From NCBI GenBank assembly GCA_963730185.1, contig CAVSQW010000017.1, positions 57,780 through 121,779 of the forward strand: a stretch of 64,000 bases of DNA. Reading direction: 5' to 3'. Origin of the DNA: an uncultured Gemmatimonadales bacterium (GTDB taxonomy: Bacteria > Gemmatimonadota > Gemmatimonadetes > Gemmatimonadales > GWC2-71-9). Of the stretch, positions 39,809-48,842 are shown piece after piece (within the stretch, counting starts at the first letter, position 1; every line of letters starts with the position of its first letter). Position numbers and translations under genes: made by a program. The notes beneath the pieces are model-generated. The model was not told where the DNA came from. It made no database searches and saw only the letters and a list, made by a program, of their open reading frames with translations.

Positions 39809-41105
39809 TCAGACCGTCGCGAACGGCTCCTCGAGCGACGGGCTCTGTGGGGTGAACAGCTCGGCTCCGCTCTCGGTGATCAGCATGTCGTCTTCGAGCC
39901 GGATGCCGAACTCGCCGCGGATGTAGATCCCGGGCTCGTCGCTGAAGGTCATGCCCGGCGCGAGCGCCAGGGTGTTGCCGCGGACGAGGTAGGGCCACTC
40001 ATGGCCGTCCATGCCCATGCCGTGACCCACGCGGTGGGTGAAGTACTTGTAGTCGGGGCCGAAGCCGGCGTCGACGATCACCTGACGGGCGGCGGCGTCG
40101 ACCGCTTGGCATTCAAGGCCGGGTCGGGCAGTCCGGAGCGCGGTGGTCTGGGCCTTGTGTTCGATCTCGAAGACCTGCTTCATCCGGTCGGTGGCCTTGC
40201 CGAGGACGAACGTCCGGCTGATGTCCGACTGATAGCCATCGACCGGAACAGCCGCCGTCGATCAGCAGGATGGTGCCGGGCCGGACGACCTGGGGCTGCA
40301 CGGACCCGTGGGGCAGGGCCGAGTATTCGCCCGTCTGAACGCTGGCCCCGCCGGAGAATCCGAGCCGTTGGTGGGCCAACCGGACCAGCTCGCCGAAACG
40401 GGTCTGGGTCATGCCGTCTTCGAGCGCCCGATAGGCGGCCTCGTACGCCGCCAGGGTCACCTTGGCGGCCAGCCGCATCACGGCGATTTCCTGGGCCGAC
40501 TTGACGCCCCGACAGCCGGCGGTGATGGGCGTGGCGCTGGCCAGTCGGGCCGCCGGCATGGCGGCCCCGGTGCCGTCGCTGAAGACGTAGCGGACGGTTT
40601 CTTCGACGCCGATCGTTCCGGCGGCGGCGCCCAGCCCTCGGAGCCCCTCGGCGATCCGCTGATACGGGCTCTCGTGCTCCTCCCAGGTCAGCACCTCGGC
40701 CCCACCGGCGCCGAGCGGCCCGGCGCCGATCTGCTCCTCGGCGCGATCCCGCTCAAAGGCCGGACAGACGACGAAAGGCCGTCCCTTGGCCGGCAGGATG
40801 AGGGCGAACAGTCGCTCCGAGAGCCCCCACTGAATGTCGGTGAAGTACTTGAGCGAGGTGCCGCCGGTCAGCATCATCGCGCTCATCCCGCGCTCGGCCA
40901 GCATGCCCCGAGCGCGATCGAGCCGACCTTGCCGTTCGTCGTTGGTGATCGGCCGCACCTGGTCCTTCATGGACGTCAGCGCGGCGATGGAGGGAGGCAG
41001 GTCGGAGGAGGACGACTCAGCGGGGACCGGCTCGTGTTGGCAAGCCGCGAGGCTCCCGAGCGCGAGCGCGCCGGCGGAGCCCAGAAATTGGCGTCGGGAT
41101 GTCAT
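39809..41105 (-). CDS. Xaa-Pro (M24) peptidase, Tat lipoprotein (apparent frameshift near 40245)
   Basis: SRRQFL Tat motif, LAAC lipobox, HRVGHGMG, EPGIY, GIRLED. Confidence 0.9.
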
Positions 41106-41275
41106 GCGGAGAAGGTACGCTCCAGCCCCGGCGCGGGCCATCCCATGTCAGGGACAATCGATCTCAGGGCTGACGATGGTGTGTCGAGGGATGGATTGGG
41201 CCGGGTCAGTCGATGAGGGTCGAAGGACCCGGCGCGGGCTGGCCGCCGACCTGGAACGCTTGGGTGCGGTGTCGC

Positions 41276-44383: not shown

Positions 44384-45268
44384 TCAGGCCTCCGGCGCGG
44401 CGGGGCGGGTCTCGATCACCAGGCTGCCACTTCGGACGTGGAGGTCGCGCTGGGGGAAGGGAATCTCGATTCCCTTGGCGGCGAGCGCGTCCCAGATCGC
44501 GAAGTTGAGGGCGCTGGCCAGCAGCTTCGGGGTGCTGATGAAGGCGCTGGTCCAGATCCGGAGCTCGAACAGCAGGGCGCTGTCGCCGAACTCGGTGAAG
44601 ATCACGTCCGGCTGGGGCTTGTCGGCCACGCCCTCGTGGTTCCGGGCAACCTCGAGCAGGGTGTCGCGGACGACCCGCGGATCCGACTGGTACGAGACCC
44701 CGACCGGCACCACGATCCGGACGCTCCCGCCGGTGAAGCTCCAGTTGGTCACCCGCTGGGTCACGAAGTCGTTGTTGGGGACGATGATCGCGATGTCGTC
44801 GTTGGTGACCACGGTGGTGGCGCGGCCTCCGATCCGCCGGACGGTGCCCAGCAGTCCGCCGATCTCGATCCGGTCGCCCACCTTGACCGGCTGCTCGAGG
44901 AGCAGGACCAGGCCGCTCACGAAGTTCCCGACCACGTTCTGGAGCCCGAAGCCGATGCCGACACCCAACGCGCCGCCGAGGACCGCGAGCGAGCTCAGGT
45001 CCACGCCCGTGGTCTGGAGCGCCACCAGAATGCCGAGCGCGACCAAGCCGTAGTAGGTGAGAGTGGCCGCCGCCTGAGCCGAGGCTGGTTTGATGCCTCG
45101 GGCCCGAAGACCTCGCTCGAGATAGCGGCGGACCAGCCGCCGGGTCAGCCAGAGGATGAGGACGGTGAGGACTAGAGTGAGGATCAGCTGTCCCCAGGTA
45201 ACGCTGGACCCGAACATGGGCGCGGAAAAGATCCTCTTCAGGTCGCTCACCAAGGGGACTTGCAGCAT
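44384..45268 (-). CDS. MscS mechanosensitive channel
   Basis: GVGIGFGLQNVVGNFVSG, KVGDRI, IEIPFPQRD. Confidence 0.94.
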   Translation of the reverse strand: MLQVPLVSDLKRIFSAPMFGSSVTWGQLILTLVLTVLILWLTRRLVRRYLERGLRARGIKPASAQAAATLTYYGLVALGILVALQTTGVDLSSLAVLGGALGVGIGFGLQNVVGNFVSGLVLLLEQPVKVGDRIEIGGLLGTVRRIGGRATTVVTNDDIAIIVPNNDFVTQRVTNWSFTGGSVRIVVPVGVSYQSDPRVVRDTLLEVARNHEGVADKPQPDVIFTEFGDSALLFELRIWTSAFISTPKLLASALNFAIWDALAAKGIEIPFPQRDLHVRSGSLVIETRPAAPEA

Positions 45269-45355
45269 TGCGGGTCCGGGGCTCGGGTGGGGAGGCCGAC
45301 GAGCCGGGCTCGCGCCCGGCCCGCTCCTGCCGTTGGTGCCAATATCGACCCGCCG

Positions 45356-46111
45356 TTACCCGAGGTCCAGCAGCGGTTCGGCCCGCCCCACCGCGTCCGC
45401 GACCTGTTCGAGCGACTCGGCGACGAAGAGCACGTCTTGGAGCCGGTCGATCGCGAAGGGCTGGCCGATGACGTCGTCGAGGTCGAATGGCCGGCGCTCG
45501 CATCCGGGCCCGAGCGCGTTCGCGGCGTCGCTGATCGAGGACACCAAGCCGCTGCCGTAGACCCGGACCTCGCCGGCTTCACGCACCAGCCCGAACTCCA
45601 CCGTGAACCAGAAGAGCCGGGCCAGGGCGGTGACCGCCGCGGGGTGGCGCGCTCGAGCCCCGAGCCGGCCGAAGCGGTGCAATAGGTCCGCGAATACGGG
45701 GTCGGAGTGGAGCGGGACGTGGCCGAATACGTCGTGGAAGATGTCGGGCTCCGGCAGGTAGTCGAGCCGCTCCGGCGGGCGGATGGTGATGGTGGTCGGG
45801 AAGCGGCGTCGGGCCAGCGAGCCGAAGAAGTCGGCGGCGGCGACAAAGCCGGCGACCGGCACCGCCTCCCAGCCGGTCAACGGCGCCAGCCGGCGGTTGA
45901 CCTCGACCAGGTCGGGGATTCGGTCGGGGGCGAGACCGATCCGCTCGATGCCCTCCAGCACGGCGCGGGCCCCGGTTCCGGCAAGGCCGGCCATCCGGCG
46001 GGCGTAGAGGCGGCGCCAGACGGCGTGGTCGAGACCGGTGTAGGCGTCCCACCGCTGCTCGGGAGGGGGCGCGCTCGGGCCGGCGGACGGCGGGGCATCG
46101 ACTCCAGACAT
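45356..46111 (-). CDS. phhA: Phenylalanine 4-monooxygenase
   Basis: DYLPEPDIFHDVFGHVP, LFWFTVEFGL, YGSGLVSS; GGAG RBS. Confidence 0.93.
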   Translation of the reverse strand: MSGVDAPPSAGPSAPPPEQRWDAYTGLDHAVWRRLYARRMAGLAGTGARAVLEGIERIGLAPDRIPDLVEVNRRLAPLTGWEAVPVAGFVAAADFFGSLARRRFPTTITIRPPERLDYLPEPDIFHDVFGHVPLHSDPVFADLLHRFGRLGARARHPAAVTALARLFWFTVEFGLVREAGEVRVYGSGLVSSISDAANALGPGCERRPFDLDDVIGQPFAIDRLQDVLFVAESLEQVADAVGRAEPLLDLG

Positions 46112-46138
46112 CGTCGGACTCCAGGGTGAGGGCACGAC

Positions 46139-46172
46139 AAAAAAGCGGCCCGTGGAGAATCCACGGACCGCT
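46139..46172 (-). terminator. Intrinsic terminator (attenuator) in the phhA leader
   Basis: AGCGGTCCGTGGA-TTC-TCCACGGGCCGC-TTTTTT, ending ~27 nt before the phhA ATG. Confidence 0.9.
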
Positions 46173-46194
46173 GGGACTTACCGGATCGGGAGTG

Positions 46195-46275
46195 CTAGCT
46201 CGGCACCCGCCTCCAGCCGCGGCCCGGGGAACGGGTCGCGTAGTAATACGAGCGGGCGGCGAGGTGAGCGATCAT
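46195..46275 (-). CDS. Tyr-rich attenuator leader peptide MIAHLAARSYYYATRSPGRGWRRVPS
   Basis: 26 codons plus TAG; TAT TAC TAC at 46248-46240; lies between promoter and terminator. Confidence 0.82.
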   Translation of the reverse strand: MIAHLAARSYYYATRSPGRGWRRVPS

Positions 46276-46282
46276 GGCGTCA

Positions 46283-46311
46283 AGAATGGCGGATCGGACC
46301 GGGTTCGGCAA
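46283..46311 (-). promoter_or_regulatory. Sigma-70-type promoter of the phhA leader
   Basis: TTGCCG-N17-CATTCT, 7 nt before the leader ATG. Confidence 0.65.
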
Positions 46312-46327
46312 GTCCGGCCGGGCCGGG

Positions 46328-46726
46328 TCACGGCCCGGAGTCGGCGGGGTCGGACGAAGGGTCGGCCAACCAGGAGCGGGCCGCGTCGGGGTCCGGAAAG
46401 ATCCGGAGCTCGGTCATGTCGCCGAGCATCTCGAGCATTCGCATCATCCCGTAGTTGCCCGGATCGGAGACGACGACGGCCCAGCGGCTGCCCCTGAGAT
46501 TCTGGCGCTCCTTGATGAACGTCGCGACGCCACGAACCAGCCCGGTCGGCGGCATCGAGAACCCGCGGCGGTCGCGGAAGAAGGCGAAGTCGGGCCGATA
46601 GCCCTCGTCCTGGAGCACTTCGTCGAGGGTGCGCACGAAGGCGTCGGGGTCCAGGCCGTCGGGGCCGACCAGGTCGACGATCCCGGCCTCGGGGTCGATG
46701 CGATAGGTCAGCGGCGCCCCGCTCAT
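46328..46726 (-). CDS. Hypothetical protein (SpoIIAA/STAS-SEC14-like)
   Basis: DRRG, RWAVVV, YGMMRM, IFPDPDAARSWL pattern. Confidence 0.65.
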   Translation of the reverse strand: MSGAPLTYRIDPEAGIVDLVGPDGLDPDAFVRTLDEVLQDEGYRPDFAFFRDRRGFSMPPTGLVRGVATFIKERQNLRGSRWAVVVSDPGNYGMMRMLEMLGDMTELRIFPDPDAARSWLADPSSDPADSGP

Positions 46727-46923
46727 GCGGGCGTCGCCTCGTCGCGGCCGGGCCGGTCGGGGATCGAAGTTCGCATCATTCGCGCAACCTAGTCGAGCCT
46801 CACGGCGAGCACTACCGCTCGCGCGTCTGAAACCCCGCCCGCGGCCCCGCCGTACGAGCCGACGGCCGTTCGGCCTCGGCTGCCGCGACCCATCTGGCAG
46901 GTCCTTCTCGATCGGAGCCCCAG

Positions 46924-48842
46924 ATGCGCGCCTCGCGGTTGCTTCGCCTGTCGTCCCTCCTCCTCTCGATCCCGCTGTTCGTCGCCCGGCCGAGCCCGCT
47001 CGCCGCCGCGGCCCCGCCGGACTCGTCGGCCCGGCGAGGACCGACCGACGCGGCGGAGCTCGAGGCCTTCCTCGACGGGGTGATGCGGGCCGAGCTCACC
47101 GACCGCCACATCGCCGGAGCCACGGTGGCCGTGGTCCGCGACGGTCGGCTCCTCCTCAGCAAGGGCTACGGCTACGCCGACGTGGCGAGCTCGGGCGCCG
47201 GTGGACCGGCCCGGACGCTCTTTCGGTCGGGTCGGTCAGCAAGCTCTTCACCTGGACGGCGGTGATGCAGCTGGTGGAGCAGGGCAAGCTCGACCTCGAC
47301 GCCGACGTCAACACCTATCTCGACTTCAAGATTCCCGACACCATCCCGAGCCCATCACCCTCCGCCACCTGCTCGACCCACACGGCCGGCTTCGAGGACG
47401 ACAATCGCGGCATGTAGGTCTACGACCCGGCCGAGCATCGCGCCGATCGGTGCCTGGCTCGCGACCCATCAGCCGGCCCGGGTCCGCCCGCCCGGCACCT
47501 ACTCCGTCGTACTCGAACTACGGCGCCGCGCTGGCGGGGTACATCGTCCAGCGGGTCTCCGGCCAACCGTTCGAGACCTACCTCGAGGAGCACCTGCTTG
47601 CGGCCGCTGGGCATGGACCACACCACCGGCCGCCAGCCGCTCCCGGCCGGCGCTCGCCGCCGACCCTCGGCTGGGCTACGCCTGGTCCGACGGGCGGTTG
47701 TGCCCCAGCCGTTCGAGCTGGTGAGCGGAGTGACACCGGCCGCGTCGATGAGCTCGACCGCCGCCGACATGGCCCGCTGGATGCTCGCCCACCTGAACGA
47801 CGGCGAGCTGGACGGCGCCCGGATCCTTTCGCCGGAGACCGCCGAGACGATGCAGGCCCATCAATTCGGCGGCGACCCGAGGATCACCGGATGGGGGTTC
47901 GGCTTCTACGAGCAATCGAGTCACGGCCTCCGGATCATCGGGCACGGCGGCGGCTCGGCCTGGTTCCACACCAACCTGTCGCTGATCCCGTCGGAGCGCC
48001 TCGGGCTCTTCGTCTCGTTCAACACCGAGACCGGCGCCCTCCTCGCGCTGGGGCGGTTCCTCGACCTCTTCCTCGATCACTACTACCCGGCCGCGGCGCC
48101 GCCCGCGGTGGCGATGGGCGGGCTCGAGCGGTTCGCCGGGACCTACCAGTTCAACCGGCGCTCGTTCACCTCCTTCCAGAAGGCGCTGACGCTCATGTCC
48201 GGGGTGCCGATCACCGCCCTCGGCGACTCGGCGCTGCTGGTCGGGCTGCCGTTCGGCGCGGCGCAGTACCTGCCGATCGACTCGATGCTCTTCGCCGAGA
48301 AGCACGGCTCGATGCGGCTGGCGTTCCGGGCGGATTCGAGCGGGCGGGTCACCCACGCCTTCTTGAGCCTCACGCCGTTCATGGTGCTCGACCGGCAGCC
48401 CTGGTACGCGCTCCCCCGGCTCCACCTGACCATCCTGATCGGCGGGCTCGCGGTGTTCGCGGGTGTCCTGCTCGGGGCGGTCAGCCGCTGGCTCCGGCGC
48501 CGGCGAGGGCTCGAGCCGGCCGCGCCTCCCCTGGCGGTCCGGGCACGGCGCCTGCTGGCGGGCGCCGCGGTCGCCAACCTGCTGTTCGCGATCCTCTTCG
48601 CCCTGGCGATGTCGGACCAGGTGTCGCTGATGTCGGACTCGCCCCGGCTGCTGGACGTGGCGCTGGCGCTGCCGTTGATCGGACTGGCGCTGGTGCTGGC
48701 CGGCGCCTGGACCGGAGCGCGGCTCGTGCGGGAGGGGGCCGGCACGGTCGGCGGGCGCTGGCGGCACTGGGCGGTGGTGGCGGTGGGGCTCGCCTTCGCG
48801 TGGTCGCTCTGGTTCTGGAACCTGCTGGGTGATAAGGGATGA
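46924..48842 (+). CDS. Serine hydrolase (beta-lactamase family) with C-terminal TM helices; several apparent frameshifts and a stop
   Basis: Signal peptide, GSVSKLF (SxxK), YSNYG, GHGGG spread over several frames. Confidence 0.8.

Follow-up and report, generated by a model that had tools for sequence, protein, structure and literature searches.

In an uncultured Gemmatimonadales bacterium, the gene phhA, which encodes a predicted phenylalanine 4-monooxygenase, is preceded by a short leader open reading frame (ORF) with three tandem Tyr codons and by three mutually exclusive RNA helices, one of them an intrinsic terminator. As judged from its sequence, this leader is very likely a ribosome-stalling transcription attenuator that senses Tyr-tRNA. 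A first-pass annotation of the same DNA had proposed a Tyr attenuator at this position, and the proposal is supported by the conservation of Tyr codons, by helices that travel with phhA among relatives and by the fact that no tyrA (prephenate dehydrogenase gene) was found in the genome. The elements located in the window (the whole 64,000-nucleotide stretch of DNA that was analysed) are, in the direction of transcription:

46306..46311, minus strand: predicted −35 hexamer TTGCCG, 17-nt spacer (looser promoter rule)
46283..46288, minus strand: predicted −10 hexamer CATTCT, 7 nt 5′ of the leader ATG (looser promoter rule)
46195..46275, minus strand: leader ORF of 26 codons plus stop, ATG at 46275, stop at 46197-46195, peptide MIAHLAARSYYYATRSPGRGWRRVPS
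46240..46248, minus strand: putative Tyr control codons, three in tandem (TAT TAC TAC; read from the sequence)
46233..46239, minus strand: region 1 (GCGACCC), 5′ arm of the protector hairpin, abutting the 3′ side of the Tyr run (RNAalifold)
46213..46229, minus strand: region 2, antiterminator arm, with core GGGCCGC at 46225-46219 (folding, permutation)
46139..46172, minus strand: intrinsic terminator, 13-pair stem (regions 3 and 4) plus U tract (terminator scan, covariation)
46119..46122, minus strand: Shine-Dalgarno-like GGAG of phhA, outside the terminator stem (upstream motif scan)
45356..46111, minus strand: phhA, predicted phenylalanine 4-monooxygenase, 251 aa, ATG at 46111 (profile match, iron-ligand motifs)

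The leader ORF and its Tyr triplet were recovered exactly where the first-pass annotation had placed them (46275-46195, with the codons at 46248-46240); the annotation was equally correct that GGGCCGC, identical to the terminator 3′ arm, follows the Tyr codons by 14 nt (it begins at 46225), and that a 13-bp terminator with U tract is followed by the phhA ribosome-binding site (GGAG at 46122-46119). The terminator arms (46172-46160 and 46156-46144) form 9 G-C pairs around a loop of 3, with six T at 46144-46139. Region 2 has two possible partners, region 1 and the terminator 5′ arm; for pairing with the latter, the proposed core is shared while its extension differs, as folding favours TCC-C-CGGGCCGC with GCGGTCCG-T-GGA. 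This hairpin is the only terminator-like site in 45000-47200, where 0.7 would be expected by chance; a single such site in 2.2 kb is unremarkable, and its combination with a Tyr leader is not. Three Tyr within 6 codons are found in 14 of 8013 short Met-ORFs genome-wide (0.17%) vs 31 of the 37 leaders described below, and among the genome's 142 terminator-like hairpins, 21 of which are preceded by a short ORF, only the one before phhA has an ORF with at least three Tyr.

Around the locus, the 132-aa ORF upstream of the leader (46328-46726, minus strand) has no Pfam or NCBIfam match, and an MscS-family channel gene (44384-45268, minus strand) lies on the same strand 87 nt 3′ of phhA. Elsewhere in the window a beta-lactamase-family (serine hydrolase) gene (46924-48842, plus strand) and an M24 peptidase gene (39809-41141, minus strand) are each split over several frames, which suggests frameshifts or sequencing errors; the FAH match on contig C2 of the same genome is likewise in four pieces.

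Conservation was evaluated at 109 phhA loci (29 found in 61 related genomes, plus the best 80 of the 562 in a genome collection) using a script that sought a terminator and short ORFs and was blind to Tyr content; ambiguous starts were picked by hand, only identical duplicates were removed, and three Tyr ORFs with no detected terminator (L024, L025, L041) were included on visual inspection. Among Gemmatimonadota loci whose PhhA identity is at least 55%, a leader is present at 35 of 45 assessable loci (the window's own included) and absent at 10; left out of the 45 were two loci with too little upstream DNA and one duplicate. Below 55% identity, the Gemmatimonadota loci comprise 2 with a divergent Tyr leader, 3 whose leader is Tyr-free, 8 lacking a leader and 2 that are too short; outside the phylum a leader occurs at 2 of 44 assessable loci (L064, L070). 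Model R1 finds no leader near 10 close Gemmatimonadota copies, the Planctomycetota copies or most Acidobacteriota copies. Two loci with divergent PhhA (38%; L024 and L025, genomes G002 and G009) have a 23-codon leader in which Tyr occurs 2-3 times, and their hairpin is strong but its U tract poor.

The 37 leaders are 23-43 codons long (median 27) and stop 21-33 nt 5′ of the terminator. Tyr occurs 2-6 times per leader and makes up 129 of 968 residues (13.3% vs 1.5% expected from base composition, or 8.9-fold) in a set of related, not independent, genomes, and both codons are used (TAC 70, TAT 59). In the same 968 residues Phe is depleted (8), Trp is at expectation (14) and Arg reaches 219 (22.6%, 1.7-fold). 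The Tyr conservation that the first-pass annotation had named as a check is thus borne out, with at least two Tyr in all 37. The sequence upstream of the leader falls into 32 unrelated groups among the 37 loci, and the window's upstream ORF was found at none of the other 36; since the upstream DNA is unrelated, the leader element travels with phhA.

The 37 leader sequences were aligned (alignment A2), and covariation was assessed with shuffle and permutation tests that ignore relatedness. The terminator, 96.1% paired, has both sides changed in 6 of its 11 pairs (0/500 shuffles). The protector hairpin, formed by the seven bases past the Tyr run and the antiterminator core, has 88.7% of cells paired and 6 pairs, 3 of which are changed on both sides (covariation 0.218 vs 0.129 shuffled). 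The antiterminator, 87.4% paired, hardly varies among phhA leaders and exceeds shuffles on 1 of 5 measures. When 59 leaders of the wider family are considered, a leader's pairing to its own terminator arm is more stable than to the arms of other leaders (-19.0 vs -17.3 kcal/mol; 0/5000 permutations), an advantage that is weak within the 39 phhA leaders alone (387/5000 permutations). The covariation that the first-pass annotation had listed as a check is therefore present for terminator and protector within phhA leaders, whereas the antiterminator, weak there, covaries clearly only across the wider family. In one leader (L053), regions 2, 3 and 4 are altered together.

Folding with ribosome-masked segments, also proposed in the first-pass annotation, was run on truncated and on full-length RNA. 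On window RNA ending before arm 4 the antiterminator probability is 0 when no ribosome is present and 1.0 when the A site holds any of the Tyr codons, and the antiterminator disappears once the ribosome is 2-3 codons past the last Tyr (12-nt ribosome footprint); in this model a stall anywhere at codons 6-14 frees it. The same truncated RNA from other leaders behaves alike, in that a Tyr-codon stall raises the antiterminator to at least 0.5 in 36/36; with no ribosome, the antiterminator is below 0.2 and the protector dominant in only 12/36. (The zero obtained with the mask at the stop codon is trivial, because the whole leader is then masked.) In full-length RNA at equilibrium, however, the terminator forms despite the stalled ribosome, with a mean of 0.98 over the 36 leaders. 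The same script returns 0.62 and 0.86 for E. coli trpL, the latter value being the full-length terminator with a stalled ribosome, and since trpL behaves similarly the full-length equilibrium fold does not discriminate. Because the terminator wins at equilibrium, the switch would have to be kinetic, and we infer from these models that it operates co-transcriptionally, like the classical case.

A strict sigma-70 scan finds no promoter upstream of the phhA leader and no promoter-like site in the 33 nt between hairpin and phhA ATG. A looser rule was applied together with a control of sampled genomic ATGs. It calls for a TTG-type hexamer, a spacer of 16-18 nt and an A..T hexamer that ends 4-9 nt before the ATG, a layout present in 26/39 leaders vs 85/17175 control ATGs (0.5%), and a Shine-Dalgarno-like word precedes the leader ATG in 0/39. 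From the promoter-like motif 4-9 nt before the ATG and the missing Shine-Dalgarno word it follows that the leader transcript is probably leaderless, starting at or a few bases from the ATG. At three loci (L037, L046, L122) the Tyr leader has no promoter motif and starts a few bases past the 3′ end of a tRNA-like sequence; these leaders may be co-transcribed with the tRNA gene.

In the proposed mechanism, transcription would start at, or a few bases from, the leader ATG, and a ribosome would begin translation there without a leader sequence. When Tyr is ample the ribosome would cross region 2 as far as the stop codon, which lies 21-33 nt 5′ of the terminator, and the terminator would then form. 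When Tyr is scarce the ribosome would stall at the Tyr codons and cover region 1, freeing region 2 to capture the terminator 5′ arm before the 3′ arm is made, so that RNA polymerase would read into phhA. PhhA, with a PhhB-type enzyme encoded elsewhere, would then convert Phe, probably imported, to Tyr.

This physiological role depends on the nature of the enzyme and on the aromatic metabolism of the genome. The phhA product scores 282.6 bits against NCBIfam NF008877 (cut-off 247, passed) and 235.1 against TIGR01267 (under the cut-off of 264.75), and its iron-ligand motifs FHDVFGH and WFTVEFG (His-His-Glu) are intact; family score and iron ligands identify it as a putative bacterial phenylalanine 4-monooxygenase, its Phe specificity being predicted, and its nearest relatives are from Gemmatimonadota. 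In the source genome, which is 81.8% complete, neither prephenate dehydrogenase (tyrA), whose absence the first-pass annotation had proposed to check, nor prephenate dehydratase nor chorismate mutase of either type was found, and the genome does contain chorismate synthase, EPSP synthase, two DAHP synthases and a pterin dehydratase, as well as HppD and FAH (Tyr breakdown) and PaaZ. At this completeness missing genes may be unassembled; the absence of prephenate dehydratase is probably real, since only 3/22 genomes of the genus have one. Because tyrA, prephenate dehydratase and chorismate mutase were not found, PhhA is probably the genome's route to Tyr, and because Phe synthesis is not detectable in the genome it would convert imported Phe and not end a de novo pathway. 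In Dyella japonica phenylalanine hydroxylase has been shown genetically to be a Tyr source (PMC7311316, in the portion of text available).

Among genomes with a Tyr-leader phhA, 12/14 have no prephenate dehydrogenase over the cut-off, and the other two have a Tyr leader before that operon too; the comparison of 2/14 leader genomes with 5/10 no-leader genomes that have the enzyme involves a sample too small and too related for a test. Catabolic neighbours occur at 2/39 leader loci vs 13/60 without a leader, a weak difference as flank lengths differ. Three copies (L014, L017 and L020, in G021, G006 and G005, respectively) encode a PhhA without the first iron His, and L020 also lacks the second His and the Glu; their leaders keep the hairpins and have no Tyr codons, with Cys, Phe and Trp present. 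As the three genomes are close kin they count as one event. In a quick PhhA tree these copies lie on a long, weakly supported branch (2.45), making their nesting among leader-bearing PhhA unsure. The Cys-containing leader before a degenerate hydroxylase may represent regulatory re-wiring of a pseudo-enzyme. Of the 22 genomes in the genus, only these three have prephenate dehydratase, which lies behind a Phe/Tyr leader, and no tyrA was seen in them.

Model R1 has matches in 33/150 genomes of the class, and 33 of the 47 matches listed were inspected. These include further phhA leaders (L119, L122, L126), Tyr-rich leaders before chorismate mutase-prephenate dehydrogenase (L149, L151) and before DAHP synthase operons with tyrA downstream (L148, L127/L150), Phe/Tyr leaders before DAHP synthase-prephenate dehydratase (L128, also L159-L161), and His-rich leaders before hisG, identified by Pfam for L131 and L155 and by similar N-termini only for L132, L136 and L152. 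One of these, L155 (G000:C6:230527-230676, minus strand), is an R1 match in the source genome itself, with a His-rich leader and terminator before hisG. A second leader of the same genome (L156, G000:C15 near 345102, minus strand), missed by R1 and found by a genome-wide hairpin survey, has Trp codons (WWWPW) and a terminator before a DAHP-synthase/glutamine-amidotransferase (trp-type) operon. By sequence, the source organism thus appears to use an attenuator-like layout for its His and Trp pathways too. The best case for the codons acting as the sensor is this match between codon type and downstream pathway.

Nine R1 matches (L137, L139, L141, L143, L145, L147, L153, L154, L158) consist of a terminator only and were rejected. 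A Cys-rich leader (CACMC) with terminator (L144:1464-1652, plus strand, G161) precedes a 319-aa ORF that matches nothing in Pfam at E 1e-6 and is a possible Cys attenuator; a Phe-rich leader of like layout (L130:1501-1654, plus strand, G140) precedes an ORF without a Pfam match, and a leader-like remnant (L157, G053:C21:248203-248331, minus strand) has three Tyr codons past a tRNA-like sequence and no clear start or target. Taken together, the balance leans slightly toward a single family of leaderless attenuators in Gemmatimonadota whose sensor codons (His, Trp, Phe/Tyr, Tyr and perhaps Cys) have been swapped per gene, with the Tyr version being a true attenuator that forms a Tyr regulon with tyrA operons and marks PhhA as a Tyr-making step.

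Three other explanations were weighed. One is that the hairpin does no more than terminate the upstream gene (46726-46328) or damp phhA at a constant level, with the small ORF incidental: the upstream gene shares the strand, its end lies 52 nt from the leader ATG, no separate terminator-like site was detected for it, and the terminator is the equilibrium fold. This was also a doubt raised in the first-pass annotation, and it did not hold up, as hairpin and leader follow phhA and the upstream gene does not. The leader moreover has its own promoter motif, the Tyr enrichment and the three-way compensation would be purposeless, and phhA would be left with no other promoter-like site in the 33 nt between hairpin and ATG; this explanation is extremely improbable. 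A different proposal is a TnaC-like leader peptide: on sensing free Tyr or Phe it would arrest the ribosome, and phhA would be induced to serve Phe catabolism. PhhA is usually catabolic, HppD and FAH are encoded in the genome, and the distal peptide is Arg-rich and frequently T-G-R, all of which would fit. TnaC-like arrest peptides have a conserved peptide sequence near the arrest site, whereas the leader peptide is highly variable apart from Tyr, and its distal frame differs in at least 5/37 leaders (L004, L050, L052, L065, L067) that keep the RNA motif. The intrinsic terminator, the same layout with matching codons before biosynthetic operons, and the scarcity of catabolic neighbours (2/39 vs 13/60, with differing flank lengths) also argue against arrest by the peptide, leaving it highly improbable.

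A real attenuator could instead respond to a broader signal (general translation slowing, or codons for Arg, Trp, Cys or Ser close to the Tyr run), to which Tyr would contribute little. Consistent with this are the Arg content (22.6% of leader residues, 1.7-fold), the many interrupted Tyr runs (YYRY, YCYWY, YAYSY), the modelled freeing of the antiterminator by a stall anywhere at codons 6-14, and aroR of C. glutamicum, which has a Tyr codon yet no Tyr response (PMC11802643, available text). However, Tyr is the sole strongly enriched residue (8.9-fold, at least two in all 37 leaders), most Arg codons lie, by inspection, in GC-rich helices past the switch point, and codon type tracks the downstream pathway, so that a broader signal is very improbable and sensing of Tyr-tRNA remains the preferred reading.

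In layout the phhA leader belongs with the trpL/pheL/hisL class, as the first-pass annotation had recognised: a run of end-product codons lies in a short leader ORF (37/37 leaders with at least two Tyr, both codons used), an intrinsic terminator separates leader and first gene, and an antiterminator exclusive of the terminator is predicted to be free when a ribosome stalls at the control codons (36/36 on truncated RNA; 0/5000 across 59 leaders, weak within phhA leaders). With E. coli trpL-trpEDCBA, pheL-pheA and pheST (PMC11802643, as far as its available text goes) it shares end-product codons, antiterminator and terminator helices and a U tract, and with trpL its behaviour in the ribosome-mask script. 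A candidate protector hairpin of 6 pairs is conserved and covaries, yet dominates without a ribosome in only 12/36 leaders. Unlike trpL, pheL and pheST it has Tyr codons, a phenylalanine hydroxylase as target and an apparently leaderless start, and is found in Gemmatimonadota. The phhA leader matches no Rfam leader family (Trp, Phe, His, Leu, Thr) and no T-box at the gathering threshold. The C. glutamicum aroR-aroF attenuator (Neshat et al. 2014), a Phe-Tyr-Phe leader that responds to Phe and not to Tyr according to the same excerpt (PMC11802643), is likewise ribosome-mediated and has a Tyr codon before an aromatic-pathway gene, whereas phhA leaders are Phe-depleted and carry Tyr 2-6 times. 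Attenuation by tyrosyl-tRNA as an idea is found in a table entry for Shewanella aroF that cites Camakaris et al. 1980 (PMC2659441) and in a text that calls the tyr-tRNA attenuator of aroF 'hypothesized' (PMC8632094); unlike the phhA leader, this aroF-tyrA proposal is an E. coli hypothesis, and the available parts of both sources mention neither a Tyr-codon leader nor phhA. In mycobacteria, polycysteine leaderless sORF attenuators sense Cys and free a ribosome-binding site (bioRxiv 10.1101/834739, available text); these too are leaderless short ORFs at several loci with a codon run as amino-acid sensor, and the phhA leader differs in having an intrinsic terminator, with the phhA RBS outside it.

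Control of phhA is also known from the Pseudomonas phhABC catabolic operon, where, in agreement with the first-pass annotation, the sigma-54 activator PhhR (PMC1173090, in the part available) takes the place that leader RNA would have here; the same part refers to putative attenuators before tyrA and names no sensor. Tyrosine operons are regulated by T-boxes (PMC1262725, available portion), which also sense tRNA-Tyr and do so by binding the tRNA directly; none matched here. A Tyr-codon attenuator of phhA does not appear in the portions available of the literature searched, including PMC3082878 and PMC3458870, and the supplements of PMC8632094 and PMC2659441 could contain uORF candidates. No proven Tyr leader-peptide attenuator was found in the literature searched or in Rfam. 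An earlier prediction of a Tyr leader could be contained in RegPrecise or in subscription papers dealing with comparative prediction of attenuators.

A Tyr leader-peptide attenuator, if demonstrated, would fill a gap in the classical set, and the Tyr leader would be a possible part for a Tyr biosensor. Short and leaderless, with sensor codons that appear to have been swapped several times in nature, it would offer an easily tested model of regulatory re-targeting. For Gemmatimonadota, which are abundant and mostly uncultured, the leader would serve as a sequence-level marker separating phhA copies that likely make Tyr from those that break down Phe, a distinction that affects predictions of auxotrophy in this phylum.
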